The position numbers were made by a program, and so were the translations under genes. The notes below the pieces were generated by a model that saw only the letters and a list, made by a program, of their open reading frames with translations, ran no database searches and was not told the DNA's origin. Below, in pieces: positions 2,479 to 31,756 of a DNA stretch of 64,000 nt. Source of the DNA: Chitinophagaceae bacterium (GTDB taxonomy: Bacteria > Bacteroidota > Bacteroidia > Chitinophagales > Chitinophagaceae); assembly GCA_947455215.1 (NCBI GenBank), contig CANGNA010000001.1, forward strand, positions 52,800-116,799, written 5' to 3'. Within the stretch, counting starts at the first letter, position 1. Every line of letters starts with the position of its first letter.

Positions 2479-3669
2479 ATGCCCGCAAACGAAAATGGTA
2501 TAATAGCATTAATAAATGTTGATGCTGCAACTTACGATATCATCAGCCAATGTAACCTTGGTGGTGCAGAGCTGATGATGTTCAAATCGGGGCTCGAGTT
2601 AAGCCAGAGGTGGGAAAAGCAAGGTCTTCAGCTTAAAGCCATTGTTTCGCAGAGCGAGGTGGTGGCGCCAATGGGCATTTACCTGCTGGAAACACTCCGC
2701 AAGCAGCACAACTTCCCCGATGTTCCTTTTGTACTGCTGGTCAACAACGTTACAGAAAATACCATAAGGCTATGCCTGCAAACAGGTGTTGCCGATATTT
2801 TCAGGTTCCCGCTGAAAAAGAATCGTTTCGAAAAAAGGATGAGCTTCCTGATTGCTAACTGGAACCTGCTGCGCAAGCGCAAGGCAAAGGAGGCAATAAA
2901 AGAATACCAGATACCACTGGCCAAGCGCTTGTTCGATATCTTTTTCTCGGGTCTTGTTTTGCTGTGTTTATCGCCATTCCTGCTCATTCTCATCATTATC
3001 ATGAAGCTGGAATCGAAGGGGCCAATTTTCTATTACTCGCTTCGAGTGGGTACCGGTTATAAGGTCTTCAAATTTTACAAGATCAGGTCTATGTATGTAA
3101 ATGCAGACCAGCGCCTGAAGGAGCTGAAGCACCTGAACCAGTATGCAGCCAGCGATAAGGTAGCCCCCGCACAGGAAATAGAACTGAACAGCCTTTGCGA
3201 TGAATGTGTGAAGAACGGTACCAAGTGCCAGCAACTGATGTACGCCGATGATAAATCGTGGTGCGAAAGGAATTATATAAAAACACGTAAAGCCCTGGCT
3301 GAAAATGCGTTTATTAAGCTGAAGAATGACCCACGTATCACCAGGGTGGGCAAGATCATCCGAAATACCAGTATCGATGAGTTGCCGCAATTGTGGAACG
3401 TGTTCATTGGCGATATGAGCATTGTGGGCAACAGGCCGCTGCCATTATATGAGGCCGAGAAGCTGACCACCGATAAATATGCTCTACGCTTTATGGCCCC
3501 CGCCGGCATCACCGGCCTGTGGCAGGTAGAGAAGCGCGGCAAGGGCGAGATGTCGTCTGAAGAGCGCATGATGCTCGACAATTCCTATGCACTCAATCAT
3601 AGCTTTGTCTACGATATCAAGTTGATATTAAAGACCATCCCCGCGCTATTCCAGAAAGAGAATGTATAA
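2479..3669 (+). CDS. Bacterial sugar transferase (priming phosphoglycosyl transferase) with an N-terminal receiver-like domain
   Basis: C-terminal KRLFDI..., DPRITRVGKIIRNTSIDELPQLWNV.GDMSIVGNRP, GITGLWQV; N-terminal ~130 aa with a REC-like pattern (PFVLL, GVADIFRFP). Confidence 0.88.
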   Translation: MPANENGIIALINVDAATYDIISQCNLGGAELMMFKSGLELSQRWEKQGLQLKAIVSQSEVVAPMGIYLLETLRKQHNFPDVPFVLLVNNVTENTIRLCLQTGVADIFRFPLKKNRFEKRMSFLIANWNLLRKRKAKEAIKEYQIPLAKRLFDIFFSGLVLLCLSPFLLILIIIMKLESKGPIFYYSLRVGTGYKVFKFYKIRSMYVNADQRLKELKHLNQYAASDKVAPAQEIELNSLCDECVKNGTKCQQLMYADDKSWCERNYIKTRKALAENAFIKLKNDPRITRVGKIIRNTSIDELPQLWNVFIGDMSIVGNRPLPLYEAEKLTTDKYALRFMAPAGITGLWQVEKRGKGEMSSEERMMLDNSYALNHSFVYDIKLILKTIPALFQKENV

Positions 3670-3674
3670 GTGTC

Positions 3675-4505
3675 ATGAGACCAGCAAGTACACCCGCATA
3701 CGTTAAGGAGATACTCGGCTATGCCAATGCAGATAAGGTGCAACTGGCTAAGTGTGCCTACGCTCAAACTGATCATACCGCTCCGCTGGTCTCTATAGTG
3801 ATACCGGCGTATAATGAGGAGGAGCATATCCTCAATCCCATTTTATCTATCAGCCGCAACACCACCAATTTTCCGTTCGAGATCATTGTTGTGAATAACA
3901 ATTCTACCGATAAAACCGGCGAACTGGCAGCATCCACAGGTATCACCTGCATACTGGAAACAAAGAAGGGTGTTACAGCAGCCCGCACTGCCGGATTAAT
4001 GGCAGCTAAGGGCAAATACGTCATCAATGCCGATGCAGATTCTATCTACCCCAAAGAATGGATCAATGAATTGATCAGCCCTATGGAGCAGGATGATAAA
4101 GTAGCGCTTGCTTATGGCAGGTTTGCCTTTATGCCCGATAAGATGACCGGCCGCTTCAGCTACTTTCTCTACGAGAACCTGGCAGATTTGCTCCGTTTAT
4201 ACAAGCGTACAATGAAGGATGAAGCCATGAATGTGTATGGCTGTAGCTCTGCATTCCGTAAAGCCGATTGTCTGAAGGTAGATCTGTATGAACATCCGCC
4301 CGGCACAGGCGAAGATGGCTGGCTGGCATTAAAGCTGCGCGACAAAGGTTTTGGCCGCCTGCATTATGTAAGCACCATGAAGGCATTGGTATGGACCATA
4401 GACCGCCACCTGCAGCAGGATGGCGGCTTATGGAAAGCACTTGCCATGCGCGTAAAAGGTGTGTTCTTCGGCTCCGATCCCGATAAGTATCATGTCAAGG
4501 GGTAG
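3675..4505 (+). CDS. Glycosyltransferase family 2
   Basis: SIVIPAYNEE, IVVNNNSTD, DAD motif. Confidence 0.92.
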   Translation: MRPASTPAYVKEILGYANADKVQLAKCAYAQTDHTAPLVSIVIPAYNEEEHILNPILSISRNTTNFPFEIIVVNNNSTDKTGELAASTGITCILETKKGVTAARTAGLMAAKGKYVINADADSIYPKEWINELISPMEQDDKVALAYGRFAFMPDKMTGRFSYFLYENLADLLRLYKRTMKDEAMNVYGCSSAFRKADCLKVDLYEHPPGTGEDGWLALKLRDKGFGRLHYVSTMKALVWTIDRHLQQDGGLWKALAMRVKGVFFGSDPDKYHVKG

Positions 4506-8194: not shown

Positions 8195-8740
8195 ATGAAA
8201 CTGAAAGGTCTGTTACTGCTCCTCGTGCCCGCTCTGCTGCTACAGTCGTGCATGGAAGACGATATTACCGGCACTGTTAAAGATTGTAAAGCTATTGATG
8301 CTAAAATGGCCGGCTACAAACTGAAGAAGATAGAGATGCCGTATACCAAAGACGAAGGTGGCTCCGTATCTATTTTCACTAACGATGGTAAGCTGGTGCT
8401 CACTACCGATACTGCCTACACCTCATCCGGCACCAGTTCTGCCCGCTACTATTTCGACGCTGGCGACCTGATCTGCGTGATACAGAACGAATATGCCTAC
8501 AACCAGCCTAATTACATGACCCGTGAGCGCGCCGATAGCGCCCACCCTGAATATTTCGATCCATCTAAAACAGTGTTGAAGACCAACAGCTTCTACTTCT
8601 ACAATGGCCACATGGTAAAGTGGATCAATGAGAAGAACGAGACCGTAAACCCCGAGAACAAACGCTTCGACCTGCAACAAGCCATCCTGCAAAAAGACGC
8701 GGAAAAAATAAAGAAAATGGCCCGCGAAGACAGGCAATAA
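8195..8740 (+). CDS. Hypothetical lipoprotein
   Basis: Lipobox LLLQSC; host-like codon usage. Confidence 0.75.
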   Translation: MKLKGLLLLLVPALLLQSCMEDDITGTVKDCKAIDAKMAGYKLKKIEMPYTKDEGGSVSIFTNDGKLVLTTDTAYTSSGTSSARYYFDAGDLICVIQNEYAYNQPNYMTRERADSAHPEYFDPSKTVLKTNSFYFYNGHMVKWINEKNETVNPENKRFDLQQAILQKDAEKIKKMAREDRQ

Positions 8741-8796
8741 GCTACTATAGTGCACACGGTCAGTTCAGCGAAATTTCAGTTTCGTATAGGATTCGA

Positions 8797-8916
8797 CCAC
8801 TTTCCGCCATTGTTGTCGTTCCCGCCAACAATCAGCCCACGGGGCGCTAAACACATGTAGTATCAATCGGTCTGAAAGACCGAAAGATAACAGCCCGGGA
8901 TGCAGTCCCGGAAAAG
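8797..8916. repeat. Composite REP-like element, copy 1 (REP2 hairpin + GGTCTGAAAGACC hairpin + CCCGGGATGCAGTCCCGG hairpin)
   Basis: Direct repeat of 10531-10652; three internal palindromes. Confidence 0.85.
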
Positions 8917-8944
8917 CTCGGTATTTCACTCATAAAGTGGGAGC

Positions 8945-9019
8945 TCCCCTCTTTTATAGCCTATGTGCGTAGCCCAAAGAGGGGACGATATTCGACCAGC
9001 CGCAGGCGTGTTGTCGAAT
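8945..9019. repeat. Further REP-like hairpins (tcccctcttt...aaagagggga; attcgac...gtcgaat)
   Basis: Inverted repeats visible in the sequence. Confidence 0.55.
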
Positions 9020-9130
9020 GTCGGGGGTGATTGGCGCTATGCAAACAATCATTTAAAATATACACAGCAAGTCCTTTTTCATCGCATTGTTTTTACTTAT
9101 CTTTATTAGCGCTTTGGTTTGGGTAATGTT

Positions 9131-9535
9131 ATGCGGTGGTATATAAAAAAGATAGTTTTAATGCTGTTGCTCATCACACCCGGAATAGTAGAAGCCGGCC
9201 CCACATTTGTGTTCAGCGTAGATGATACAAGTAAAATACAATTTGTTCAAACCGACTCTATAATAGTACATACTGTTAAAGGTGACGTGGTACGCACCAT
9301 GAGCCAGGTAATAAAGGATAGTACCTTAGATGCTACACAACCACAGCAAATACTATTAATAAAACGGATACCAATGCGTGCCGGCAGATACATCATTACA
9401 TCTACTGCAGCACACAGGTACAAAGTGCTCGAATTTGTAGTAGATAAAAAGAAGCAGGTAAGTATATTGTCGTCCCTACCCTTCGGAGAGTTCGTAATTG
9501 ATAAACCGGCTCAGATCATATTCAAGGCCAATTGA
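9131..9535 (+). CDS. Hypothetical secreted protein
   Basis: Signal peptide (IVLMLLLITPGIVEA); AT-rich ORF. Confidence 0.6.
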   Translation: MRWYIKKIVLMLLLITPGIVEAGPTFVFSVDDTSKIQFVQTDSIIVHTVKGDVVRTMSQVIKDSTLDATQPQQILLIKRIPMRAGRYIITSTAAHRYKVLEFVVDKKKQVSILSSLPFGEFVIDKPAQIIFKAN

Positions 9536-9563
9536 TAGAATATAAAAAGCAAAATAACTTACT

Positions 9564-10043
9564 ATGAAGATCAGATCACTATTGCTCGCTTTTTTCATTT
9601 TTTGCTCACGGCATACCTGGGCTCAGTATGGAGACAAGTGGGAGGAACGAAAATGTAATTGTGATTCTATACTAAGGGTAATAAAGCAAAAACCTTGTTT
9701 AGGTCTGTCACTCATATCGGATTCAAATTTCATCTATACCATTAATACCTTTTGTCTGGAAGATATTTGTCACTTCTACGCTACTAAGACAAAAATCAGA
9801 CATCTTTACGTGGCACCTATTTGTTACAGCGACGGTTTGAACTATAGTAACATATCCTTTGGCAAGTCATTTTATAAAATGGATATGCTTTTGTGGATGC
9901 GAAAACTAGGCTGCGGCGACTCGACAAAACTACAAAAGAAACATTACGGTGATTTTGACGTAATGGAGCGGAGAGAAATAGATAGAATGTATAACAGCAA
10001 CATGCCAGTAAAGAACTTTGATACAACCATATTATGGAAGTAA
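9564..10043 (+). CDS. Hypothetical secreted Cys-containing protein, paralog A
   Basis: Signal peptide; homologous to the next ORF. Confidence 0.75.
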   Translation: MKIRSLLLAFFIFCSRHTWAQYGDKWEERKCNCDSILRVIKQKPCLGLSLISDSNFIYTINTFCLEDICHFYATKTKIRHLYVAPICYSDGLNYSNISFGKSFYKMDMLLWMRKLGCGDSTKLQKKHYGDFDVMERREIDRMYNSNMPVKNFDTTILWK

Positions 10044-10513
10044 GGGTAGCCACTATACTATGCATTTTCTTTTTCTCATTTGCCTCCGCGCAAACGAAGA
10101 GCAAACAACAGTATCATAAAAAGCTGTGGGATTGCGATTCTCTTATTAAGTCAATTAGAACGAGTCCATGCAATGGTTTGAAGTTATTATCTGACTCAGC
10201 TATTTTTAGCTCACATGTCGATTATATCTGCGCAAGTAATATATGGCAATTTTACGGTCATAGAACCGCTGTTCATCATTATTTTAATTGTGATCCTGTG
10301 CCTGTGGTTTCGTACGAAAGTCTTAATATCGGAAAGTCATTATACAAGATGGATTTGCTGTTTTGGATGCGCCACTACGGTTGTCCTGACTCTGTGGCGC
10401 TGCAAAGCAGACACTATGGTAGCTTTAATAAATATGAATACGAGGATATTATGCAATACTACGATCGTGGTTTCAATATTATCCCAATGGATACAACCAT
10501 CTTATGGCGATAA
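10034..10513 (+). CDS. Hypothetical secreted Cys-containing protein, paralog B
   Basis: Shares CDS, PCxGL, GKSxYKMD, WMRxxGCxDS, HYGxF and DTTILW with paralog A; 10-nt overlap. Confidence 0.75.
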   Translation: MEVRVATILCIFFFSFASAQTKSKQQYHKKLWDCDSLIKSIRTSPCNGLKLLSDSAIFSSHVDYICASNIWQFYGHRTAVHHYFNCDPVPVVSYESLNIGKSLYKMDLLFWMRHYGCPDSVALQSRHYGSFNKYEYEDIMQYYDRGFNIIPMDTTILWR

Positions 10514-10530
10514 AGATATTAATGATCTAG

Positions 10531-10751
10531 CCACTTTCCGCCATTGTTGGCGTCCCCGCCAACAATCAACACACGGGCCACTAAGTAGCTGTAGTATCAA
10601 ATCGGTCTGAAAGACCGAAAGACAATAGCCCGGGATGCAGTCCCGGGAAAGCCCACAAAAACCGGTAAGCTCTGAAAGAGCGAAAGATACACTATGCTTC
10701 TTTGGTCGCCATTGTTGGCGTCCCCGCCAACAATCAGCACGCGGGGCGCTA
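10531..10751. repeat. Composite REP-like element, copy 2, plus a GCTCTGAAAGAGC hairpin and a further REP2 copy (10708-10751)
   Basis: attgttggcg-tccc-cgccaacaat perfect 10-bp stem occurs twice. Confidence 0.88.
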
Positions 10752-10770
10752 TAAACAACTAACGCACTGT

Positions 10771-12951
10771 CTATTTTCTGCCTGCCGGCAATTTATCCCA
10801 GTACTTTTTGCCCCATAATGAATAATAGCCTACCGATTCTCTATCAGGCCTCGGCTGCTTGCCTTGCAACATGTTTAGCGGGTTATCATCGCTTACAGAT
10901 TCCTTGTGCCATTTTTCTGTACCACCCTTTATCTCCACCACTTCCATTGGCTGCCCCTTTGCCGTTGCTATCTTTTCAGGGTAAATGAACATAAAATCAT
11001 ACTTGCCAAAGGGAACGACCACCCCGAAGTTATCTACATTCAGCATGCCCAGCTGCCGTTTTTCATTCACGCATTGCACCAGCACGGCCTTACCAAAGCA
11101 TAGTTCAACACCACCCGCAGGGTAGGGGCATTTTTTCAAGCTGCCGTTCAGCTTATCCATTACAAATACACCCTCGGCGCGCTCATCATCGCCTGTGGGG
11201 TATTTTACAATTTTGCCGGTGCCGGAGAAAGCATATTTGTACTCGCGCTCGTCATTTACCACCATGCTATCGCTGATCGCTCCGTCATCGTTAGCAGTAA
11301 AAACGGCCTGCACCCTTCTATACTGGGCATAGTGGCGCCGTTCATCTACTGGGAAATACCTCAAAGCTATATGTTTACCATTAAGGCCTTCGGGATCAAA
11401 ATAGCTATACCGGTCCAGGTCTATTACCTTAAATGTCTTCAGGTCTATGCGTTTCTTCACTTTGTTCAGCGATGCTACTGCAAACGTTCGATTATCATAT
11501 ATCACGGTGTCATAGATCGGAGGAACTATTTCCTTAAACATATAATTCAATAAACCCCATTTACCGTTCTTCCTGAACGATGCGGTCCTCGCTTCATGCA
11601 TGTTATATAACTCTTCATAGTCAGTATTGATGCTGTTCAGATGCTCGTCATAGATCGTATAGTGTTCGTTACTCTTAGCCCTGATAGCAATATAGGTGTG
11701 TTTGGATATGCCTGTTGCACGATACGCTGAATCATAGTCGTAGATATTCAGGGTCTGCACCAATTGCGGGGCACGGTAGCGGTGCATTGCAGAATCGGCA
11801 ATAGTAGCTATTACATTAAAGTGATTGTCGTAAAAGCTATGTATACCGTCCTTTTTAATATCCAGCAGGCTATTGCTTTCGCCTATCGTTTGTGTGCCTG
11901 TACTATCTGTATACACTATCTGCGATCGCGCTATACTATATATGTATTGTTTCCTTTTACCCGGGCCTATATCTGTAACCTTCAGAAATGAATCACCTAT
12001 CATGGCAGCTTCCTGCATACTGGGCAACATCGGCTGGCCATTAATATCCGCTATCTGGAAGCCACTCTGCCCATATACTAATTGAGCCTTTGGCTTTCTT
12101 AATATGATATGCATAGGCTTGGCAGTATGCTCCTGGTAGTCCCAGCTACGCTCCGGGCTTATCAGTTCCTTACCTTCTTTGTTCCACAACTTGTGCCCCG
12201 AATAGGCAAAATTATTATCATTGGTTGGCTTCAGTTTTTCCAGCGTTATATAGTTGCCATTACGCTTGTCTATATAAATAGCATTGGCAGGTGGCGTAAA
12301 TGGGTACGATTGACCAAAAACATCGAACAGCGAGCTGGTGCCGTCTTTATACGCCAAAAGCATATCTGGCTTTATGAATCTCATACTGTCGTATACTGCC
12401 GGGATGGCAAACGAATCTTCAAGCCATTGCATACCGCATTTGTCGCCCAGCTCTATTGCTGCAAGCGTAGTGCCGCTTACCATAGCATACACCGTTCCGT
12501 CAACTTTCCGCGCCTTTCCGTTTGCTGCACGTAAGTGTACGTTTTGTGGGGCAAAAGTTTGCCAGTACACGGTGGCAGGCGGCTCCTTGGGGGCATTCAT
12601 GCCACGTGGCGGCTCTTTAAAAGTAAATAGCAGGTCGTTGGCCACCTTTGCGCTTCTGTTAAGAACCAGCAGCGTATCACTGTTAATAGGCACAATACCG
12701 CCGGTGCAGCTATCAATAATGTGGCCCGAAAGATCCATTATTATAGCGGTTGGCCCCGGCTGAACCGGCGTAGCAACAATAAACTCCGAAACACGGGCCA
12801 CAGAAACATATTTGCACGGAACCACCATTATCCCGTTCTCATCGCTCATACCCCAGTAGTTGCCCTGCCGGTAGGGGATAAGATATTTGCCTTTAGCAGA
12901 CAACTGGCCAAAACAAAAAAGAAATACTATAGCGACAAGCAGTTTATTCAT
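10771..12951 (-). CDS. Secreted WG-repeat-containing protein
   Basis: YWGMSDENGIMVVPCKY and KWGLLNYMFKEIVPPIYD WG-type repeats; signal peptide. Confidence 0.75.
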   Translation of the reverse strand: MNKLLVAIVFLFCFGQLSAKGKYLIPYRQGNYWGMSDENGIMVVPCKYVSVARVSEFIVATPVQPGPTAIIMDLSGHIIDSCTGGIVPINSDTLLVLNRSAKVANDLLFTFKEPPRGMNAPKEPPATVYWQTFAPQNVHLRAANGKARKVDGTVYAMVSGTTLAAIELGDKCGMQWLEDSFAIPAVYDSMRFIKPDMLLAYKDGTSSLFDVFGQSYPFTPPANAIYIDKRNGNYITLEKLKPTNDNNFAYSGHKLWNKEGKELISPERSWDYQEHTAKPMHIILRKPKAQLVYGQSGFQIADINGQPMLPSMQEAAMIGDSFLKVTDIGPGKRKQYIYSIARSQIVYTDSTGTQTIGESNSLLDIKKDGIHSFYDNHFNVIATIADSAMHRYRAPQLVQTLNIYDYDSAYRATGISKHTYIAIRAKSNEHYTIYDEHLNSINTDYEELYNMHEARTASFRKNGKWGLLNYMFKEIVPPIYDTVIYDNRTFAVASLNKVKKRIDLKTFKVIDLDRYSYFDPEGLNGKHIALRYFPVDERRHYAQYRRVQAVFTANDDGAISDSMVVNDEREYKYAFSGTGKIVKYPTGDDERAEGVFVMDKLNGSLKKCPYPAGGVELCFGKAVLVQCVNEKRQLGMLNVDNFGVVVPFGKYDFMFIYPEKIATAKGQPMEVVEIKGGTEKWHKESVSDDNPLNMLQGKQPRPDRESVGYYSLWGKKYWDKLPAGRK

Positions 12952-12999
12952 AATGTAAAAATATGCATTTGGATGTTATCGGTAGTTCGTGATGTTTCT

Positions 13000-13026
13000 G
13001 CCGTTGTTGGCGTCCCCGCCAACAAT
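13000..13026. repeat. REP2 hairpin
   Basis: gccgttgttggcgtccccgccaacaat. Confidence 0.85.
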
Positions 13027-13224
13027 ATCGAAACTAGGCTCGTTGTTCCGCCGCAGTCCTGTCTTCACGCTGACAGTTATAGCATTTTTATTACTCCTGC
13101 CAATTATGTACGTTTACTTTTGTAATTATCACTCATCTTGGGTAGATGAATCTATGTCTGAAAATGATTTAACTCTTTAGTTGATGGCGCTAGTCTCCAC
13201 GATAGATGAAAATTATTTAAAATA

Positions 13225-13644
13225 ATGCCAGTAGGTAGTTTAAAGCGAGATGTAATACCATTTTATCTTTTAGCAGTTTTTATAATTGCTATTGATTATG
13301 CTTTATTTAAAACTCAAATGAGTTTTACGCTACTATTTTCCGCAAATATTATTTCTATCTTTTTCATGCAGAGGTATTATATGCACAGCCATACTCGTTT
13401 AGAGATATTTGAAGATCGGCTTATCATAATATATCCTTTTACTGGCAAAAGAACGATAATCCTATTTTCAGAAATTGAATCAATAAGAATAAAGCATGTT
13501 TATAATATTGGTATGCAGGCCATATTTTTAATAGAACAAGTGCAAGGAAAAATTATTAAAATACAATTTGACTTTGCATATAAATCTGATAGCAAAATTG
13601 TGGAACTATTTAAAATGCAAGGGGTAAAAATTGACTTTGAATGA
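13225..13644 (+). CDS. Hypothetical membrane protein (two N-terminal TM helices), very AT-rich
   Basis: 139-aa ORF with two hydrophobic segments. Confidence 0.65.
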   Translation: MPVGSLKRDVIPFYLLAVFIIAIDYALFKTQMSFTLLFSANIISIFFMQRYYMHSHTRLEIFEDRLIIIYPFTGKRTIILFSEIESIRIKHVYNIGMQAIFLIEQVQGKIIKIQFDFAYKSDSKIVELFKMQGVKIDFE

Positions 13645-13673
13645 TTGCTGCTATGCATATTTGCCCAACACTG

Positions 13674-13874
13674 GTCCTCGTTTGTAACGAGGATCCTCCG
13701 GTCTGGCGTTTGTAACGCCCGTCAGATATCTTTATTACGGGAGTTCGGCAAAGCCCAGTTGGGCGCGATTTGCAATCGCGTCCTTGCGTGTGGGCGATCT
13801 CCAGATCGCCGTAGTTGGCCGGTACCTGTCTGCTGATATGCGATCTTACTTCGCCGATGTTGGGATTGCCAACA
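13674..13874. repeat. Cluster of REP-like hairpin doublets
   Basis: gtcctcg-tttgtaa-cgaggat, ggcg-tttgtaa-cgcc, gcgatt-tgc-aatcgc, ggcgatct-cc-agatcgcc. Confidence 0.75.
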
Positions 13875-13955
13875 CTTACAATTGTATTATAAATACTGCC
13901 TGACTGGTGAAACCCTATCCACTCATAGCCCCACTAAATATGTGCATATCTTTAT

Positions 13956-14198
13956 TTGGAAACCGACCCCGCCAAACCGTACCTTTACCCCCCAATAACC
14001 GTACTAAAAAATGAGATCCTTCTTATCCCTAAATCCTGCAAATCCTGATCCGGAAAAATTGCACAAAATTGCAGACACTGCAAATAGAAAGAAAAGTATC
14101 ATATTAGCAACACCTTACAAAACAGCACAATAGGCCCCTGCATCTAAAGTAAAATTGCCGGCAACTGTCATTTTTTTTCATCGGCAGAAAACTGCAAT
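13956..14198 (+). repeat. Dispersed ~240-bp non-coding element; inverted copy at 44951-45277
   Basis: Exact shared blocks aaatcctgcaaatcctgatccggaaa, aattgcagacactgcaaatagaaagaaaa, ttacaaaacagcacaata. Confidence 0.85.
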
Positions 14199-14203: not shown

Positions 14204-14266
14204 GAATTGAGCCATTCAGCTACCCGGCTTGTCACCCTGAGCTTGTCGAAGGGCATTGAGCCATTA
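14204..14266. repeat. GAGCCATT octamers flanking a GTCACCCTGAGCTTGTCGAAGGG repeat, directly after the birA stop
   Basis: gaattgagccattcagc ... gtcaccctgagcttgtcgaagggcattgagccatta. Confidence 0.7.
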
Positions 14267-14998
14267 ATAAGCCCATACCGCCTGCCCATGCACGTAGTTC
14301 TTTATAGTGCCGTCTTCCAGCTGCACCGCCAGCGTGCCATCCGCATTAGCATGTAGTATGGTGGTATTTACCGGCTGGTCGTCCTCCAGCAGCACCTGCT
14401 GTTGCCCCCGGCGGAAGAGTAGGGCATTATAATCTTTCAGCAGGGTAGCAGCATCTTTAGGAAAGCTGGTGGCGTAGAAGATCGCCTCACGCAGCGCATT
14501 CAATATGGTTCGCCTGTCAAAGTCCTTACCCGATGCTGCCTTAAGAGATGTGGCATGTGGCAGCTCTGCAGGAAACGATGGCTGCAATATGTTAAGGCCC
14601 AGGCCTATCACCGCGTAACTCCAGTTACTGCCACGTAGCACATTTTCTATCAGTATGCCGCCTGCCTTTTTGTCATTAATAATAATGTCATTGGGCCATT
14701 TCACCTGCACCTGCCAGGTGTCGTGCAGTTGTTGCAGTTCGTTAACAATGGCCGTAGCCACGGCGGCGTTGAACAGGAATTGCTCGGCCAGCGTGTGTTT
14801 AGGGGCTATTATCATGCTCATCAGCAGGCTCTGGCCGGGTATGTCTACCCACGTGCGGCCGCGTTGCCCCTTGCCTGCCGTTTGCTGGTTGGCCACTATT
14901 GTCAGGCCCGGGTGTGCCTTATTGCCATCTATCAGTTGCATGGCATAGTTATTGGTGCTATCTGTTAAATCCAGCTCAATAATATGGGCATCGGGCAT
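14264..14998 (-). CDS. birA: Biotin-[acetyl-CoA-carboxylase] ligase (no N-terminal HTH)
   Basis: DSTNNYA, QTAGKGQRGRTW, KWPNDI, KAGGILIEN. Confidence 0.95.
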   Translation of the reverse strand: MPDAHIIELDLTDSTNNYAMQLIDGNKAHPGLTIVANQQTAGKGQRGRTWVDIPGQSLLMSMIIAPKHTLAEQFLFNAAVATAIVNELQQLHDTWQVQVKWPNDIIINDKKAGGILIENVLRGSNWSYAVIGLGLNILQPSFPAELPHATSLKAASGKDFDRRTILNALREAIFYATSFPKDAATLLKDYNALLFRRGQQQVLLEDDQPVNTTILHANADGTLAVQLEDGTIKNYVHGQAVWAY

Positions 14999-17519: not shown

Positions 17520-17539
17520 AAAAATATAATGCATACTAT

Positions 17540-17578
17540 AAGGCCTTCAGACACAAGTTTGAAGGCTTTATTATTTTT
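17540..17578 (+). terminator. Probable terminator after ftsH
   Basis: aggccttca...tgaaggctt stem then a T-rich tail. Confidence 0.6.
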
Positions 17579-17652
17579 TGACCTTACTCCATTTTTGGCA
17601 GGCTTATTGCACCTTACCTTATCTGTCGAAAATACACACATACATACACGCC

Positions 17653-20211
17653 ATGACAAAGCATATCTGCTGTTTGTTATTATCTATATTGCTCACCACC
17701 GGTGCAATGGCACAGAGTGGTCCGTTTGAGCCATCATTCAAGCGGGGCTGGCACTACATAAATGCCAGCCAGTCCGACAGTGCATTGCACCTGGCCGATT
17801 CATTGTTACTGGTAATAGACAAGAGCAATAATGATGGGCGCATAAAGGCAATGAACATAAAGGCAAAGGCACTCTTTCAGAAATTGCAGTATAAAGAGTC
17901 GCTGGCGCTGCTGTTTGATGCCCTGCGCCTATGCCGGCAGCCGGCCGACAATAAGCAGGTGGCTTACATATATGGCGAGATAGGCTACCTGTACTATGCA
18001 CAAAAGCAGTTCCCGCAGTCTAAAAGCTACTACTACCGCCAGATAGACATCCTGCGAACGATACACGGCATAGATAGCCTGGCCGATCCGCTCATCAACC
18101 TGGCCACCATGCACGAGGCGCTGGGGGAGTATGATAGTGCTCTGCGATGCCTGAACCAGGTAGGGGCCATAGTGGCACACAACAACAATATGCGCCAGCA
18201 TGGCTACTATTACCTGAACAGGGGCGTGCTGATGCAATACCTGAACAAGCTGGATAGTGCCGCGTACTATTATAATGCCGCTTACGATGCCTGGAATGCG
18301 ATAGGCTACGAATCGCAGATATTCAAAGCTACATTCAACCTGGGGTATATAGCCGACCAGCAAAAGGACCACAGAAAGGCTATTGAATATTACAAGCGCA
18401 CAGAGCAGGCGGTACGCAAGTTTGGCCTGCAACGAGAGATAGCACAGGTATACGGTACCATGGCCGAAGCCTATGCGGCAATGAACCAGTTTGACAGTGC
18501 TTATAAATACCTGCTGCAATACGTGGTGATCAATGATTCTGTAACCCAGAGCGACTTTAATACCAACCTGGCAAAGCTGGACAAGCAATACCATGCGGAG
18601 AAAAGCCAGCAAACCATAAAGGAGCAACAATTACAGCTGGATAAGCAGCATAACAGGATATTACTGACGGTTGCTGCCTTGCTGATAGTGGTATTGGTGA
18701 GTGTCCTGATACTGGGTTACCTGTCGTTTGGGCGGCGTGTGCAGCAGCAGGTAGATGAGGCTAAATCGCGCTTCTTTGCCAATGTGGCGCACGAGATACG
18801 CACACCATTGAGCATGATACAGGGGCCGGTGAAGGTACTGAAGACGCAGACCACCGACCCGGATATGCTCTATCAACTGGATATGGCCGACCGTAATACC
18901 GCCCGCCTGAACGAGCTGATGAACCAGATGCTGGCTATTGCCAAAATAGATGCAGCTAAGTATGTGTTGAACGAAACCCTGGGCGATCCCGGTGCATTTG
19001 TAGGCGCCATAGCGGCAGGCTTTACTGTGCAGGCCCGGGAAAAGGGCCTATCTGTGGTGGTGAACATACCACCGGATGCGGATAATGTATTGTTCGATAA
19101 GGATGCCCTCGAAAAGGTAGCAGCCAACCTCATCAGCAACGCAATAAAGTACACACCGCCGGGCGGCAACATAGGTGTAGATCTTACTAACAGTGGTGAT
19201 ACATATATGCTATCGGTATGGGATACCGGTACCGGTATTGCCAAAGAAGAGCAGGAGAAGATATTCAGTCGTTTTTACCGCACGGCCCAGCACCAGGCCG
19301 ATGGCTCCAAAGGCACAGGTATAGGCCTGTCTCTGGTAAAGGAGTTGGTGCAGCTGATGGGTGGGACAATAACTGTAGATAGTGAACCGGGTAAAGGAGC
19401 AGTGTTCACGGTTACGCTGTCATTCAAGCCGCCGGTACCGGTCACACTTGCGGCAGCATCAGGTGACGCGCCTGTTGTTCTGCTGGTCGAGGACGATAAG
19501 GATATACTGGATTTTAATAAGACCTTGTTGCAGGGTAGTGGCTACAATGTGCATACAGCCACAAATGGCAAAGAGGCATTGACCATATTGCAGGCAGAAC
19601 TGCCGGATATTATTGTTACAGATATGATGATGCCGGAAATGGATGGCCTGGCGCTGCTGAAAGAAGTGCAGGGTAGTGTGGCTACAGATCATATACCGGT
19701 AATTATACTCAGCGCCAAAACCAGCACAAAAACCGAGGGCATAACCAACGGTGCGCAAGCCTACCTGGAAAAACCATTTGTGCCGGCAGAACTGGTGGCC
19801 GTGGTCAGGAATCAGTTGCAATTGTTGCAGAAGCAAAAAAGCAACCTGCAGCCCCAACCCGCTGAAGGTATCCAAACCCTGGAAGAGCGTTTTGCCGAAG
19901 CCGACCCTTTCAGCCGGCAGTGCTTCGAGTTCATCAAACAACATATAGACGATGCGCAACTATCGGTGGAGCTGCTGGCCAACGAGATGCACATCAACCG
20001 CAGCCACTTTCAGCGAAAGATAAAGACCCTTACCGGCTACTCACCATCCGAACTCATCAAGACAGTGCGCCTGGAAAGAGCGCTGGAACTACTCCGCAGG
20101 AGAGAAGGTAATATAACAGAGATCGCCTATGCGACTGGGTTTACATCGCAGTCGTATTTTACCAAATGCTTTTCAGAGCACTTCGGGTATCCTCCGAGCC
20201 ATGTAAATTAG
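17653..20211 (+). CDS. Hybrid sensor kinase/response regulator: TPR sensor-TM-HisKA-HATPase-REC-AraC HTH
   Basis: FFANVAHEIRTPL, NLISNAIKY, GTGIGL, VTDMMMPEMDG, GFTSQSYFTKCF. Confidence 0.93.
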   Translation: MTKHICCLLLSILLTTGAMAQSGPFEPSFKRGWHYINASQSDSALHLADSLLLVIDKSNNDGRIKAMNIKAKALFQKLQYKESLALLFDALRLCRQPADNKQVAYIYGEIGYLYYAQKQFPQSKSYYYRQIDILRTIHGIDSLADPLINLATMHEALGEYDSALRCLNQVGAIVAHNNNMRQHGYYYLNRGVLMQYLNKLDSAAYYYNAAYDAWNAIGYESQIFKATFNLGYIADQQKDHRKAIEYYKRTEQAVRKFGLQREIAQVYGTMAEAYAAMNQFDSAYKYLLQYVVINDSVTQSDFNTNLAKLDKQYHAEKSQQTIKEQQLQLDKQHNRILLTVAALLIVVLVSVLILGYLSFGRRVQQQVDEAKSRFFANVAHEIRTPLSMIQGPVKVLKTQTTDPDMLYQLDMADRNTARLNELMNQMLAIAKIDAAKYVLNETLGDPGAFVGAIAAGFTVQAREKGLSVVVNIPPDADNVLFDKDALEKVAANLISNAIKYTPPGGNIGVDLTNSGDTYMLSVWDTGTGIAKEEQEKIFSRFYRTAQHQADGSKGTGIGLSLVKELVQLMGGTITVDSEPGKGAVFTVTLSFKPPVPVTLAAASGDAPVVLLVEDDKDILDFNKTLLQGSGYNVHTATNGKEALTILQAELPDIIVTDMMMPEMDGLALLKEVQGSVATDHIPVIILSAKTSTKTEGITNGAQAYLEKPFVPAELVAVVRNQLQLLQKQKSNLQPQPAEGIQTLEERFAEADPFSRQCFEFIKQHIDDAQLSVELLANEMHINRSHFQRKIKTLTGYSPSELIKTVRLERALELLRRREGNITEIAYATGFTSQSYFTKCFSEHFGYPPSHVN

Positions 20212-20256
20212 TATTTGATAATAGTTAAACTATAAAGCATTGATAGAATGATGTGA

Positions 20257-20323
20257 TGCAACAAAATTGATAGTTTTCGCAACATAGTTTAATGACTCCC
20301 CGGGAGTTGTGGAGGTAAATTTG
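20257..20323 (+). promoter_or_regulatory. Putative AraC-type operator (GCAACA direct repeat, 21-bp period) and TAnnTTTG -7 box for the Ig-like gene
   Basis: tgcaaca 20257, cgcaaca 20278; TAAATTTG 20316-20323. Confidence 0.4.
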
Positions 20324-20401
20324 CAGCATAAAGATCACTTTAAAGTCTTTAGAAAGCCGGCATTATTTCACACTAAACAACAAATCAAAACCACGGAGAA
20401 A

Positions 20402-21871
20402 ATGAGAAAACAGATCATCGCAGCACTATTGGTGCTCACCACCATCGCAGGATTTTTATGGCAGGGCTGTAAGAAATCCGACAACAATTCCAATTCGTCG
20501 TCCGACGCCGTTCTGTCTATTACTACCGGTGCCCAAACAGTTGCCCCGGGCAATACCATCAGCTACCAGGCCGTTGTTATCGACTCGAAAGGCAATGTAA
20601 CACCAGCTACTGGTGTCAGCTGGAGCGTCACCAATTCACTGGGTAGCTTTTCCGGCAATGTGTTTACTCCGAGTAATTCGGGTAGCGGAACCATTACGGC
20701 GTCGGCTACTGTAAATGGCAAAACACTTACTGCCAAGGTAGCTGTGGGTGTATACCTGCCTGCCGTGTTCACTGTGCTGCCATCGGCTATAGCATGGACC
20801 ACCAATGCAGGTACTATTCCGCTGTTGCCGGTTTACCTGGGTACGGGTTCTGTTACAAGCTACACTTATTCATCAAGCAATAGTTCTGTAGCATCGGTTG
20901 ACGCCAGTGGTAATGTAAGCTTTAATGCTACGGGTGAATGTGTGATCACAGTAACTGCCAATGGCCTGAGCGACAACAACAAGGTATACATACCGGTACT
21001 GGTTACCGGCCTTCCGCCGGTGTCGCTGCCTGTAGTGCGTGTGTCGGTAACACCATCGGGCAAAGAACTGTTCCGCGGCGAGACCTTTACATTCTCGGCT
21101 GCTGCGTTCAATAGTTCCAATACGCAGGTAAGCGGTACCACCTTTACATGGGCATCGCAGGATGCAGGTGTGGCGTCTGTTGATGCTACTGGTAAGGTTA
21201 CAGCAGTAGGCATTGGTCAGACCATCATCACGGCAACAGCCAACGGTATCACCGGCCAGGCAGAAGTGGATGTATTACCTGATTCGCTGATACTGGTAAC
21301 ACCTATTATGGCCAACATTGGCGCCGGTGCTACCAAGCAGTTTACCGCACAGGCCTATAGCGTGAACCATACCAGCCATGCGCTCACCGCCATAACTATG
21401 CCAGCCGGCCTTACCTGGGAAATACCCACAACAGGTATCCCGATCTTTGATATAGCTACAGTGAATGGCACCGGCCTGGTGACCATGAACTCTTCTGCAA
21501 CCGTTGGCCTGTCGAGCGTAGTGCTGGCGCACGTAAGCTCGCCGACCATAGAGCCGGGTTCTGCACTGATCATGGTTAGCGATTGCAATTGCGGCACTAC
21601 TACCGCAGGTGTAGACCATATCAACCTGCCGGGTGGTAATACTATGAATGCCTCTATTACCGGCGGCCCTGTTACGGTAAATGCAGTGGCGGTAGATGCC
21701 GGCAACAACCCTGTATCGGGTGCTACCATACACCTGTGTACCGATAATATGGCAGTATGTAATGTGGACAATTCTACCGGTCAGATCATACCTTCCAGCC
21801 CCGGCACAGCCGTGATCACAGTATGTAATGGCGGTGTATCTACCACTATTACGGTTACCGTTACGTTTTAA
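20402..21871 (+). CDS. Lipoprotein with several bacterial Ig-like (Big_2) domains
   Basis: Lipobox LWQGC; repeated SSNSSVASVDASG and SQDAGVASVDATGKVTAVGIG motifs. Confidence 0.88.
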   Translation: MRKQIIAALLVLTTIAGFLWQGCKKSDNNSNSSSDAVLSITTGAQTVAPGNTISYQAVVIDSKGNVTPATGVSWSVTNSLGSFSGNVFTPSNSGSGTITASATVNGKTLTAKVAVGVYLPAVFTVLPSAIAWTTNAGTIPLLPVYLGTGSVTSYTYSSSNSSVASVDASGNVSFNATGECVITVTANGLSDNNKVYIPVLVTGLPPVSLPVVRVSVTPSGKELFRGETFTFSAAAFNSSNTQVSGTTFTWASQDAGVASVDATGKVTAVGIGQTIITATANGITGQAEVDVLPDSLILVTPIMANIGAGATKQFTAQAYSVNHTSHALTAITMPAGLTWEIPTTGIPIFDIATVNGTGLVTMNSSATVGLSSVVLAHVSSPTIEPGSALIMVSDCNCGTTTAGVDHINLPGGNTMNASITGGPVTVNAVAVDAGNNPVSGATIHLCTDNMAVCNVDNSTGQIIPSSPGTAVITVCNGGVSTTITVTVTF

Positions 21872-21892
21872 TTGAAACTCTTTATTACAGAT

Positions 21893-21924
21893 ACCTCCTG
21901 CAGCTACCTGCAGGAGGTTTTCTT
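21893..21924 (+). terminator. Intrinsic terminator
   Basis: acctcctgcag-ctac-ctgcaggaggt plus T tail. Confidence 0.8.
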
Positions 21925-21950
21925 TGTATATTTGTTATATAAACTTTATT

Positions 21951-23384
21951 ATGAGATCATTCCTATACATCCTGTTATTCTTTTCTTCCTCGCTCTGTTT
22001 TGCCCAAAACTACCAATGCCTGCAGCCAGGTGTGCAGCATTACTTTATTAATAGCGACCACTATCTGAGAGGTGTACGCGTAGATTCTGTAAGCTTAAGT
22101 GGCGATACTACTGTTTACCACCTGTATCGCACCGAACGCGGCTCTTGTTTTGGCACAATGTATCTTGGTCCGTGCGATACCAATGGGGGTAGCTGGCTGG
22201 GGCATAGGGTATTGCAACAGGCTGACGGCACATTTATTTTCGATAACCGCTGGGGCAATAATGTTATTATAAAGCCGCAGGCAGCCGTTGGCGATAGCTG
22301 GGTAATGTACGCCGACGGTAGCAGCCTGCGTTACGATGCACAGGTAACAGGTATTGATACAATAACCGTTTTAGGTGTCTTGGACTCTGTAAAGCGGCTA
22401 CGCATTACGGCTAACGATACTGCCGGAGTGGTGACGACGGATTCCCTTACAGGTGTTGAGCTATTGCTGAGCAAGAACCATGGTTTTGTGCAGGTTTGTG
22501 ACCTGTACACATTCCCGTACCATAGAGCCGACTCTGCCTATCGTGCGGGATTAGATTTTTATTTAGATGTATGTACGAAAAATATGTATGGTACGTCTGT
22601 TTATAGGCCAGGCACAAGCAATGCTATTTTTAAAATAGTATCGCTTACACCACCCAACGATGTTGCCTTACATAATTGGAGTATTGGTGACGTTTTTGAG
22701 CGTAGCTACAGCGCCGGTTTATGGCCGAACTTTTATTCCGGCGGCAATATACTGGATAGCATTGTTTCTAAAAATGTAACCGGGCATAAAACAGTTTACG
22801 GTACATCTGGCTGGAGACGCGAAAGCGGTATGCAAATAATCCGGAGCGGAAGTGTGGTATATTACGATACTGTGTTCAGTATAGTGGACAGTATTAAAAT
22901 GCCGGAAGAACTTTACCTTAATAAGCCTATAGTGTACTTTTATCCTAAAGATACGTTTAACTGTATTACAGCCGATGAGTTTAAGCTATATGGCGATGGT
23001 CGGCATACAGAGGTTTATAAATGCCCGATAGGAATAATATCTTACTGGGATATGGATGATATGGGATATTTTTCTGACACCTCACTAATTGCCTATAAAA
23101 TGGGCTCCCGCATTTGCGGCAATTTACCTCCCGGGCTATCTGTTGCGCAGATATCAGCAGGTTTGCCACGCATAATTTTACACCCTAACCCTGTTACCGA
23201 TAATATCCTGATAGATGCTGACCTACCGATGAACAAGGTAGAAATGGTAGACATGACGAGCAGAGTCTTATTATATACGGAATGTAATACCACGAGTCTG
23301 CAGTTAGATGTCTCCCGATTCCCGCCCGGCCTATACTTAGTGCGTGTCAACAACAGCGTAGTGCAGCGTTTTGTAAAGCAATAG
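21951..23384 (+). CDS. Secreted protein with a T9SS type A sorting domain
   Basis: Signal peptide; LHPNPVTD...PPGLYLVRV...RFVKQ. Confidence 0.85.
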   Translation: MRSFLYILLFFSSSLCFAQNYQCLQPGVQHYFINSDHYLRGVRVDSVSLSGDTTVYHLYRTERGSCFGTMYLGPCDTNGGSWLGHRVLQQADGTFIFDNRWGNNVIIKPQAAVGDSWVMYADGSSLRYDAQVTGIDTITVLGVLDSVKRLRITANDTAGVVTTDSLTGVELLLSKNHGFVQVCDLYTFPYHRADSAYRAGLDFYLDVCTKNMYGTSVYRPGTSNAIFKIVSLTPPNDVALHNWSIGDVFERSYSAGLWPNFYSGGNILDSIVSKNVTGHKTVYGTSGWRRESGMQIIRSGSVVYYDTVFSIVDSIKMPEELYLNKPIVYFYPKDTFNCITADEFKLYGDGRHTEVYKCPIGIISYWDMDDMGYFSDTSLIAYKMGSRICGNLPPGLSVAQISAGLPRIILHPNPVTDNILIDADLPMNKVEMVDMTSRVLLYTECNTTSLQLDVSRFPPGLYLVRVNNSVVQRFVKQ

Positions 23385-25877: not shown

Positions 25878-26023
25878 CAGGAGTTGATCCCGGCCATCGG
25901 GAGATGGCCTACAATGAAATTGAAAATTTCGCATAACTGGGTTCATTTGGGTTATCCGAAAACGAATACGCCCCGATGGTTGTTGGTGCGAACACCAACA
26001 ACTGCGCTAATAATGTGTATATA

Positions 26024-26329
26024 TCATTCTGCCATCTTTCTTATTGTCCATTCTTCAGCTACAGAGCCTCTTTCCGCTTCTTCACCATTCGCTATATGGA
26101 GAATATCCAGTATCGATTTGTCGGAATCCACCATATGCCCTAAACCAACAATTCTGGGTCGTTCATCACCATAGTGTAATCCGGCACAAAGAAATTGAAA
26201 CTCATCATCATCTTTACAGACGTATAAAATAGGACTTGTTTTTTCAAATACATGCGAGCATATGAAAACAGCAATATGGTATTCTTTTTCAGTTAGTTCA
26301 TGTCGTTTTTCGTTGTCAGGCGTGTTCAT
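26024..26329 (-). CDS. Hypothetical protein, AT-rich
   Basis: 101-aa ORF; CSHV...ILYV...FQFLC pattern. Confidence 0.65.
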   Translation of the reverse strand: MNTPDNEKRHELTEKEYHIAVFICSHVFEKTSPILYVCKDDDEFQFLCAGLHYGDERPRIVGLGHMVDSDKSILDILHIANGEEAERGSVAEEWTIRKMAE

Positions 26330-26379
26330 AGATATAAAAGTATGCAAGTTTGAACTTGTAAATTTGCTTGTTGATTGAC

Positions 26380-28238: not shown

Positions 28239-28246
28239 CAAAGATA
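28239..28246 (-). promoter_or_regulatory. -7 box (TATCTTTG) of the lepA promoter
   Basis: Matches TAnnTTTG, 11 nt before the ATG. Confidence 0.6.
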
Positions 28247-28254
28247 CATCATTT

Positions 28255-28405
28255 AATGGCTCAATGGCTGAATGGCTCAATGGCTGAATGAATTTGATAA
28301 TTGAGGGTAATGTGGTGGAATGTAGCAATGTGATAGAATGTGATGGAATGTGTTGGAATGTGTGAGAGTTTCTGGTATTTGAAATTTGGAACTTGGGATT
28401 TGGTT
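28255..28405. repeat. Three stacked short tandem arrays: 8-mer AATGGCTS x4, 10-mer AATGTGnTRG x5-6, 7-mer GGnATTT-like x4-5
   Basis: Read directly at 28255-28290, 28309-28363 and 28374-28405. Confidence 0.85.
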
Positions 28406-29173: not shown

Positions 29174-30511
29174 TTACAACAGCTTGAAGCTTTCGATGAA
29201 TTTGGTAGTGAAGTTGCCTGCGCGGAAGTCGGGGTCGCGCATCAGCTGCATGTGGAAAGGTATGGTTGTTTTCACACCTTCTATCACATATTCGCTAAGG
29301 GCGCGCTCCATTGTATTGATGGCTTCTTCGCGGGTCTGGGCTACTGCGATCACCTTAGCGATCATAGAATCGTAATAAGGCGGGATGGTATAGCCTGCGT
29401 AGATATGCGAGTCGACACGCACACCGTGGCCACCCGGCGTGTGCAGGGTAGTGATCTTGCCAGGGCACGGACGGAAATCGTTGTACGGATCTTCGGCATT
29501 GATACGGCACTCGATAGCGTGGATCTTTGGTTCGTAGTTCTTACCGCTGATAGGTATGCCTGCTGCGATCTTGATCTGTTCTTTGATCAGATCGTAACTG
29601 ATCACTTCTTCAGTAACACCGTGCTCTACCTGGATACGCGTGTTCATTTCCATGAAGTAGAAATTGCGGTGCTTGTCTACCAGGAACTCTATGGTACCAA
29701 CACTTTCGTAGTTGATAGCAGAGGCTGCCTTGATAGCTGCTTCACCCATCTTCTGGCGCAGTTCCGGCGTCATGAACGGAGAAGGTGACTCTTCTACCAG
29801 CTTCTGGTGACGACGCTGTATAGAGCAGTCGCGCTCAGACAGGTGACAAACGGTACCAAACTGGTCGCCGGCAACCTGTATCTCTATATGGCGGGGTTCT
29901 TCAACGAACTTCTCCATATAGATACCATCGTTCTTGAAAGAAGCTGCTGCTTCTATCTTGGCGGTATTATAGGCATATTCCAGTTCGCTTTCTTCCCATA
30001 CCACGCGCATACCCTTACCACCACCACCTGCAGTGGCCTTAATGATAACCGGATAGCCCATGGCTTTAGCAATACCCTTGGCTTCGTCCACGCTCTGCAA
30101 CAGACCGTCGGAGCCAGGTATCACGGGTACGTTGGCCTTTATCATGGTTTCCTTCGCAGTGATCTTGTCTCCCATAGAGTTGATCATCTCCGGCGTAGGG
30201 CCAATGAATTTGATATTGTATTTGGCACATATCTCGGCAAACTTGGCATTTTCTGCCAGGAAGCCATAGCCCGGGTGAATGGCGTCGGCATTGGTAATTT
30301 CTGCCGCTGCCATTATATGCTGTATGTTCAGGTAAGAGTCGCTGCTCTGTGCCTTGCCTATGCATACTGCCTCGTCGGCAAAGCGCACGTGCAGGCTCTC
30401 CTTATCGGCAGTAGAGTATACTGCAACGGTACGGATGCCCATCTCGCGGCAGGTACGAATGATACGCAGTGCGATCTCACCCCTGTTGGCAATCAGTATT
30501 TTTTTAAACAT
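29174..30511 (-). CDS. accC: Acetyl-CoA carboxylase biotin carboxylase subunit
   Basis: [43 protein letters not shown]; the TTG at 30529 lies in the repeat and is not the start. Confidence 0.98.
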
Positions 30512-30519
30512 CTTTTTCA

Positions 30520-30557
30520 AATGGCTCAATGGCTTAATGGCTCAATGGCTTAATGCT
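30520..30557. repeat. AATGGCTY x4 octamer array just upstream of the accC start
   Basis: aatggctc aatggctt aatggctc aatggctt aatgct. Confidence 0.9.
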
Positions 30558-30635
30558 TTTGCCTTCGGCAACAAATGGAGCAATACCTTAATTATTTACT
30601 CCATTGTCATTAGCTTTTGTGCCGCCGTTGATATT

Positions 30636-31004: not shown

Positions 31005-31034
31005 GTTGTTTCATTGGATAGTGTAAAGATCCGG

Positions 31035-31750: not shown

Positions 31751-31756
31751 CAAAAA

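Follow-up and report, generated by a model that had tools for sequence, protein, structure and literature searches.

We analyzed a 64,000-nt stretch of contig CANGNA010000001.1 (hereafter the window), which belongs to a Chitinophagaceae bacterium from a freshwater lake metagenome, and focused on an islet of five genes located between a lipoprotein gene and birA in a region rich in repetitive extragenic palindromes (REPs). The lipoprotein gene on the left (8195..8740, plus strand) encodes 181 amino acids (aa) with the lipobox LLQS/C, and birA on the right (14264..14998, minus strand) matches TIGR00121 with 143 bits. The open reading frames (ORFs) of the islet were confirmed in the ORF list of the window and form the three blocks that an initial annotation had delimited (9131-10513, 10771-12951, and 13225-13644). 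Block 1 contains three plus-strand genes: p134 (9131..9535, G+C 0.40), encoding a predicted secreted ORFan of 134 aa; p159a (9564..10043, G+C 0.37), encoding a cysteine-containing protein of 159 aa predicted to be secreted and all-alpha; and p159b (10034..10513, G+C 0.38), a paralogue of p159a with 36% identity. Block 2 is the minus-strand gene WG726 (10771..12951), which encodes a predicted secreted protein of 726 aa with faint WG repeats and has a native G+C of 0.46. Block 3 is the plus-strand gene mem139 (13225..13644, G+C 0.28), which encodes 139 aa with two predicted transmembrane (TM) helices. Signal peptides and TM helices were judged by eye from the N-termini. Read in this way, signal peptides are predicted for p134, p159a, p159b, and WG726, and a pair of hydrophobic helices for mem139, in agreement with the earlier description of all islet products as secreted or membrane proteins. 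The islet genes had also been described as mostly AT-rich, and four of the five do lie 7-19 points below the G+C of the whole window (0.465), with WG726 as the exception. By G+C, blocks 1 and 3 look foreign.

In sequence searches, all islet proteins were orphans or nearly so. We found only one distant homologue of p159a (P0002, 41% identity), which is encoded on a contig from another lake sample (L007), within a tandem duplication of 1.27 kb that comprises small genes, lacks REPs, and adjoins atpDC (L007 2500-5000); the p159 family seems prone to tandem amplification. The AlphaFold2 (AF2) model of p159a had low confidence (predicted local distance difference test, pLDDT, of 60), and the predicted structure had no fold match in the PDB. 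WG726 scored 25.4 bits against Pfam PF14903, with a cutoff of 25.6, and a search for its homologues returned no real ones. For mem139, about 10 distant relatives were found among 1.84 billion representatives. Domain searches identified no transposase or integrase in any islet protein, as had been stated, and no IntI, integrase, or recombinase domain in the islet proteins or the products of the flanking genes. None of the islet proteins matched phage or defence families in PHROGs and PADLOC.

The blocks had been described as bounded on both sides by REP clusters. Repeated palindromes are indeed present in all four spacers, but one spacer does not hold a cluster. The spacer at 8741-9130 contains a first copy of a hairpin that we denote REP-A (8801..8848, plus strand, an extended unit with a degenerate stem), a first copy of the double hairpin B-C (8867..8912, plus strand), and further multi-copy imperfect palindromes up to ~9022 (8930..9022; CCCCTCTTT..AAAGAGGGG and ATTCGAC..GTCGAAT), where the Logan depth reaches 400-630x at 9003-9005 compared to a baseline of ~12x. 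The spacer at 10514-10770 contains REP-A, B-C (10602-10647), hairpin D (10669..10681, plus strand, GCTCTGAAAGAGC), and a third REP-A (10703..10750, plus strand) with a perfect 10-bp stem. Because the 273-nt spacer at 12952-13224, from which WG726 and mem139 diverge, holds a single REP-A (12995..13026, plus strand), it is not a cluster. The spacer at 13645-13931 contains the E-F double hairpin (13659..13719, plus strand, with TTTGTAA loops), which begins 14 nt past the mem139 stop codon, and hairpins G, H, and I (13764..13874, plus strand), and lacks REP-A. A non-coding element of ~270 nt (13932..14197, plus strand) then closes the slot on the birA side. In folding z-scores computed against mononucleotide shuffles (-3.3, -5.8, -0.8, and -2.8 for the four spacers in order), the first, second, and fourth spacers folded better than the shuffles, while the third did not. 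The spacer DNA is thus colonised by several non-autonomous families of REP-type hairpins, including REP-A, B-C, D, and E-F; the junctions carry 1-5 hairpins each, from at least five unrelated families. With block 2 on the minus strand and a divergent spacer to mem139, gene orientation in the islet is mixed.

REP-A has the core ATTGTTGGCG-TCCC-CGCCAACAAT within an extended unit of ~45 nt. Its four islet copies (8809, 10543, 10711, and 13003) are all in one orientation and are singlets, not inverted REP doublets (REPINs). Searching the window with the REP-A 24-mer and up to 3 mismatches recovered exactly these four copies, with 0 expected from shuffles, while variants were found at 25977, 45592, 48643, and 48987. 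Changes in the stem are compensated (GGCG/CGCC versus GGTG/CACC). The metagenome depth of REP-A is 2-18x baseline, which corresponds to 2-18 copies. The exact 22-mer core was found at more than 116 loci across Bacteroidota (L008-L123 among them), in Saprospiraceae, Lewinellaceae, several genera of Chitinophagaceae, Pedobacter, a Flavobacteriaceae isolate, and others. In 14 out of 116 loci, REP-A adjoins a gene for a REP-associated tyrosine transposase (RAYT), often bracketing it in inverted orientation. For example, in L053 a plus-strand REP-A at 2621 and a minus-strand REP-A at 3205 enclose a RAYT gene at 2677-3189 (region 2621-4024); L077 (1429-2970) is a second example, and there are others. 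At some loci, the RAYT gene and the REP units are tandemly repeated. This association identifies REP-A as a genuine RAYT-associated REP.

The B-C double hairpin is Acido-Lenti-1-like on the minus strand (8868-8912 and 10603-10647), where it covers the full 46-nt Rfam model RF01687 with two hairpins and a conserved linker. The copies score 29.8 bits (first) and 36.0 bits (second), both full-length near misses of the gathering score of 37. The summed contig depth of B-C is 1500-2100x compared to 10-11x for unique DNA, giving ~150 copies in the metagenome. The Acido-Lenti-1 motif comes from Acidobacteria and Lentisphaerae and was classed as a probable RNA with no cis-regulatory role (RF01687; Weinberg 2010, PMC2864571). 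Unlike this, B-C is a dispersed repeat, which suggests that a motif considered a candidate small RNA elsewhere behaves here as a repeat element.

Block 1 lies between the two copies of a 128-nt direct repeat (8790-8917 and 10524-10652, the second copy on the plus strand) composed of REP-A, a unique spacer, and B-C. The two copies are 86-94% identical, with 92-94% in the hairpins and ~74% in the intervening spacer. Since the spacer part is at baseline depth, and therefore single-copy in the metagenome, the composite was duplicated locally and does not belong to the dispersed repeats. In the window as a whole, REP-type hairpins were found at three places only (25.9-26.0 kb, 45.3-49.1 kb, and the islet), so they do not characterise every spacer. 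Every REP-bearing spacer in the window adjoins a low-G+C gene (6/0 versus 12/20, Fisher p = 0.007, post hoc).

We then compared the interval from the lipoprotein gene to birA in relatives. Within the species-level collection, an uncultured Flavipsychrobacter metagenome-assembled genome (MAG; L001) was nearest, with 88% aa identity in BirA and ~80% nt identity in core DNA. Near-identical contigs were found across several lake metagenomes, and a second lineage with 94-96% DNA identity to the window (the ~95% strain) was found in the GROS21 samples, where contig L293 carries the left flank and contig L285 (236 kb) the right flank. BirA-anchored scans of genome contigs, with peptide patterns that proved overly strict, recovered a single relative, and the scan of metagenome contigs returned only relatives at ≤59% identity, useless for breakpoints. 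The comparison of the slot rests on three genomes: the window, L001, and the GROS21 strain. The lipoprotein gene adjoins variable DNA in all three (81% aa identity in L001).

The islet is absent from both relatives, which confirms its proposed accessory status. In L001, which keeps both flanks, the lipoprotein gene is followed by a 1.6-kb ORF-free spacer, the conserved ~270-nt element, and birA. Besides B-C-D and REP-A, the L001 spacer contains at least six other hairpins, which reveals that REPs persist in the absence of genes. B-C-D directly follows the lipoprotein gene in L001, whereas in the window it follows block 1. Even at permissive thresholds, only chance-level matches to islet genes were found in the spacers of L001 and L285. 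Since the outgroup L001 also has the lipoprotein gene and birA as neighbors, this adjacency is probably ancestral.

In the GROS21 strain, the left flank is collinear through the lipoprotein gene, and unique homology to L293 stops at ~8800, at REP-A. Beyond this breakpoint, L293 has a REP-A of another subfamily, a paralogous ~270-nt element, and a gene for a 990-aa sensor kinase. The REP-A of L293 (17750-17800) is 97% identical to the window copy at 45587-45621, 37 kb from the orthologous site, but only ~76% identical to the window at the orthologous site itself (8801-8848), compared to ~95% in the flank. Different REP-A subfamilies at one fixed site point to REP turnover or gene conversion. 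On the right flank, birA and the ~270-nt element are preceded in L285 by two or three copies of E-F, and these in turn by glutamate dehydrogenase and further genes; homology with the window resumes at the edge of E-F (13659). Relative to this strain, the islet therefore extends over ~8848-13658, or ~4.8 kb. As the initial annotation had anticipated, the breakpoints of gene gain or loss coincide with REP positions, at REP-A on the left and E-F on the right. Slot content differed in each of the three genomes, and only all-or-none states of the islet were seen, with no block found alone. Four low-coverage runs (X5-X8) were patchy but identical in sequence, with no modular variation.

We considered whether the islet and its flanks could have been joined falsely, as a metagenome chimera at repeats. 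The Logan unitigs and several contigs do break exactly at the REP clusters (8898-9010, ~10633-10658, and 13785-14171). However, ENA contigs assembled from separate samples run across the joins, with L004 reaching from sdh to p159a and L002 from p159a to beyond ftsH; the depth is uniform at 10-12x over the flanks and the islet in three runs; and the repeats are far shorter than a read pair. An assembly artefact is hardly credible given these data.

At this locus, then, ~4.8 kb of lineage-restricted genes for exported and membrane proteins sit in a REP-colonised spacer, and the replaced segment ends on REP units. We favour, and consider reasonably probable, a reading in which the interval from the lipoprotein gene to birA is a hypervariable slot within the flexible genome, where a spacer colonised by REPs acts as a hotspot of recombination. 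The REPs would be residents of a permissive spacer and not sites imported with each gene. Genes may have entered or been swapped by ordinary recombination, with the REPs offering either short stretches of dispersed homology or hairpins prone to breakage, so that dedicated integron-like machinery would be unnecessary. Block 1 would be compatible with one crossover involving a circular or tandem intermediate. A unit of REP-A, B-C, and block 1 could have entered to the left of a B-C-D that was already there, for instance through one crossover with a circular intermediate, which would match the location of B-C-D immediately behind the lipoprotein gene in L001. The hairpins at gene 3' ends are probably also terminators or transcript stabilisers. 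By parsimony on three genomes, which is not proof, the lineage of the window probably acquired the islet genes.

Several points weigh against this reading. The GROS21 flanks lie on two separate long contigs, so that a rearrangement and not a simple replacement was involved. With three genomes and no intermediate state, parsimony is the sole guide to how many events occurred and in which direction. Where REPs fill a spacer this densely, breakpoints would fall on their edges fairly often by chance (a rough post hoc joint estimate for three breakpoints is ~0.004). The native G+C of WG726 means that this gene could be ancestral. Finally, none of the RNA runs searched contain the islet.

The native G+C of WG726 also agrees with differential loss, in which the islet genes were ancestral to a genus-level clade and were deleted in the relatives, with the REPs as bystanders filling non-coding DNA. 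A REP-free deletion does occur elsewhere in the window (17520-23365 in the GROS21 strain, see below), and recombination between the 128-nt direct repeats would remove block 1 cleanly. However, four of the five genes are 7-19 points below the window G+C, the search of the L001 and L285 spacers yielded no remnants, and almost no homologues of the islet proteins exist anywhere. Independent losses in L001 and in the GROS21 lineage would also be needed. We therefore regard differential loss as unlikely.

The initial annotation had proposed an integron-like cassette array assembled in trans by the RAYT at 47660. This RAYT gene (47660-48316) looks intact, with NHIH and YIHNNP motifs. Its product scored 64 bits against NCBIfam REP_Tyr_transpos (cutoff 80) and 21 bits against Pfam Y1_Tnp (cutoff 23), and had no match among PDB sequences. 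The gene is bracketed by inverted copies of its own ~65-nt hairpin, which has seven copies in the window, all at 47.0-49.1 kb, and is absent from the islet. REP-A variants are located 330-700 nt upstream of the gene. The motifs, together with REP copies overlapping the gene ends, fit subclasses 2.4/2.6 of Bacteroidetes/Cyanobacteria (PMC6006769). The RAYTs flanked by REP-A in other Bacteroidota are ~33% identical to the window RAYT. On this comparison, the RAYT at 47660 did not emerge as the cognate enzyme of the islet REPs, although cross-activity is conceivable given the nearby REP-A variants.

The region around this RAYT is itself variable. A 4.3-kb segment (44860-49157) is replaced by 25 nt in a contig of a sister species (L211). 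The segment comprises the RAYT gene, REP arrays, 136-nt tandem repeats containing the RAYT 5' end, and two low-G+C genes for secreted proteins (46264-46761 and 47123-47566). A gene next to the RAYT that encodes 147 aa (p147) is bracketed by a 177-nt direct repeat consisting of the RAYT 3' end and its hairpin (46804-46980 and 47594-47771, 84-90% identical).

In the proposed mechanism, the blocks would be REP-bounded cassettes moved in trans by an HUH/Y1 enzyme, the RAYT, through single-stranded REP hairpins in the manner of attC sites. The four co-oriented REP-A copies bracket blocks 1 and 2, and such a geometry is compatible with the left-end and right-end hairpins of IS200/IS605 elements. The breakpoints relative to the close strain fall at the edges of REP units, the direct repeat around block 1 includes REP-A, p147 likewise lies within a direct repeat of the RAYT 3' end and a REP, and the window encodes an intact-looking RAYT. 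Against this mechanism, the window RAYT is flanked by a different hairpin restricted to its own neighborhood, and REP-A goes with a distant RAYT clade. Block 3 has no REP-A on its right, and the junctions consist of variable numbers of hairpins from unrelated families, not one site per cassette. The genes are in mixed orientation with a divergent promoter spacer. In integrons, recombination sites travel with their cassettes, yet the L001 spacer is full of the same REPs and gene-free. Moreover, the only known homologue of an islet gene (that of p159 in L007) sits in a REP-free array, no partial state with one block and without the others was found, contigs contained no circle or deletion junctions, and a literature search gave no report of RAYTs moving genes. 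Logan joints that appeared to skip parts of the islet (such as 8911 to 10668 and 8911 to 13937) were considered as deletions or circles and rejected: their sides are only 20-31 nt long, and they are explained as cross-matches of dispersed REPs from other loci. Gene content of the slot is thus not conserved and its breakpoints are not unrelated to REPs, as the initial annotation would have it, but an integron-like array built in trans by the RAYT is not supported, given the different cognate hairpin, the unrelated hairpin families, the mixed orientation, and the gene-free REP spacer of L001. We consider such a cassette mechanism very improbable.

The 128-nt direct repeat and the REP-edge breakpoints do leave room for REP-mediated insertion. 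In a broader form, the REP units would be the actual joints of gene gain and loss, either through cleavage and rejoining of single strands at REP edges by a RAYT of this genome or through single REP-REP crossovers of excised circles, and small foreign genes would be inserted beside REPs in this way. This would explain why REPs occur only next to low-G+C variable genes, why breakpoints fall on REP edges, and why direct repeats built from REPs are found at block 1 and p147. We nevertheless regard it as improbable, and prefer the recombination hotspot described above.

Gene turnover in the window is frequent and often, but not always, next to repeats, as indicated by three further insertions or deletions relative to the GROS21 strain and by the replacement of the RAYT region in L211. 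The first (17520-23365) contains three genes, encoding a hybrid sensor kinase/response regulator, an Ig-like protein, and a protein with a type IX secretion system (T9SS) tail, and has no REPs at its ends. It is missing in the GROS21 strain. Because it is present in the more distant L001 and in L290, it represents a deletion in the GROS21 strain; on its right side, the deletion removes the final six codons of the gene with the T9SS tail. The second (26010-26379) contains a low-G+C ORF of 107 aa, in place of which the ~95% strain has 33 unrelated bases. Its left breakpoint lies no more than 3 nt from a REP-A variant that both strains retain (25977-26009), and its right breakpoint is the terminator hairpin of lepA. 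The third (30511-31075) contains a gene for a 23S_rRNA_IVP four-helix-bundle protein (30636-31004) that is absent from the ~95% strain. Its ends consist of inverted arrays of the octamer AATGGCTC in the window and of a different short-repeat array in GROS21. The filler DNA of L285 at the 26-kb and 30.5-kb sites is unrelated to window sequence. Tandem arrays of the octamer, in the form AATGGCTC/T, were observed at 28239-28312, 30512-30569, 31019-31086, and 31706-31757.

Two other features of the window were observed. The ~270-nt element that closes the slot has further copies at 44990-45217 (inverted) in the window, at 17814-18093 in L293, and next to birA in L285 (reverse strand) and L001, with 82-94% identity between copies and no match in Rfam. 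In three out of three informative cases, it lies at the edge of a strain-variable segment: on the birA side of the islet, on the left boundary of the RAYT segment that L211 lacks, and directly after REP-A in GROS21. In addition, two low-G+C genes within 33172-35160 (33246-33827, G+C 0.40; 33998-35071, G+C 0.33) have no DNA match in L211, although their flanks align; no REPs were found beside them. The 64-kb window contains no tRNA genes.

We compared the islet with known systems. It resembles the REP/bacterial interspersed mosaic element (BIME) and REP-RAYT (REPIN) system (Bertels & Rainey 2011, PMC3116915; Quentin 2018, PMC6006769) in that its elements are short, GC-rich, multi-copy extragenic palindromes clustered in spacers, often at gene 3' ends, and in that RAYT genes lie between inverted copies of the REP that belongs to them, as seen for the window RAYT with its 65-nt hairpin and for REP-A in L053 and L077. 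In contrast to that system, REP-A in the islet occurs as direct-orientation singlets and not as the inverted doublets of REPINs, and several unrelated hairpin families share the same spacers. The REP-RAYT system is reportedly also treated in work by Nunvar from 2010 and by Ton-Hoang from 2012. In Pseudomonas, REPs mark old and stable regions while recently acquired DNA forms 'REP deserts' (PMC3390384), unlike the window, where REPs sit only beside low-G+C, strain-variable genes. REPs are also targets or recombination sites for mobile DNA such as insertion sequences (Tobes & Pareja 2006, PMC1525189). As in those cases, variable DNA abuts REPs here with breakpoints at REP edges; such insertion sequences, however, carry a transposase, whereas in the islet neither a mobility gene nor terminal repeats proper to it can be recognised.

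Another parallel is provided by the minimal mobile elements of Neisseria, as far as the definition quoted in PMC3082526 goes. Between the window and L001, the same flanking genes enclose different content with no mobility gene, and exchange is presumed to occur via host recombination. The parallel is incomplete: natural transformation and flank-mediated exchange would be hypothetical for the islet; the GROS21 flanks are not adjacent, being on separate contigs; and the breakpoints of the islet fall on REP units in the spacers and not inside the flanking genes. Minimal mobile elements are said to have been described by Saunders and Snyder in 2002 and by Snyder in 2007. Integron arrays and clusters of attC sites lacking integron integrases (CALINs) share with the islet small genes of mostly unknown function between imperfect palindromes and no transposase inside. 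However, the islet has no intI or attI (intI may be missing in CALINs as well), its palindromes are dispersed REPs of several families with 1-5 per junction in place of one attC per cassette, its genes are in mixed orientation and not co-oriented promoterless cassettes, and the same palindromes fill the gene-free spacer of L001. Unlike a classical genomic island, the islet has neither a tRNA gene in the window nor an integrase, and its sole direct repeat is the 128-nt REP composite at block 1. The islet elements are ordinary REPs with RAYTs, the slot behaves like a minimal mobile element, and the locus is an instance of ordinary flexible-genome biology.

REPs and RAYTs have hardly been described in Bacteroidota so far, and the data presented here include an identical REP common to several families of this phylum and a pattern in the window that is the opposite of that in Pseudomonas. 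If REP edges were joints made by an enzyme, this would point to a role in gene flux for the domesticated RAYT/REP system, a question as old as the discovery of RAYTs, but the present data do not demonstrate such joints. If the hotspot reading is true, the locus would provide an example, at the level of single bases, of a REP-filled spacer acting as a hotspot of gene turnover in freshwater Bacteroidota.

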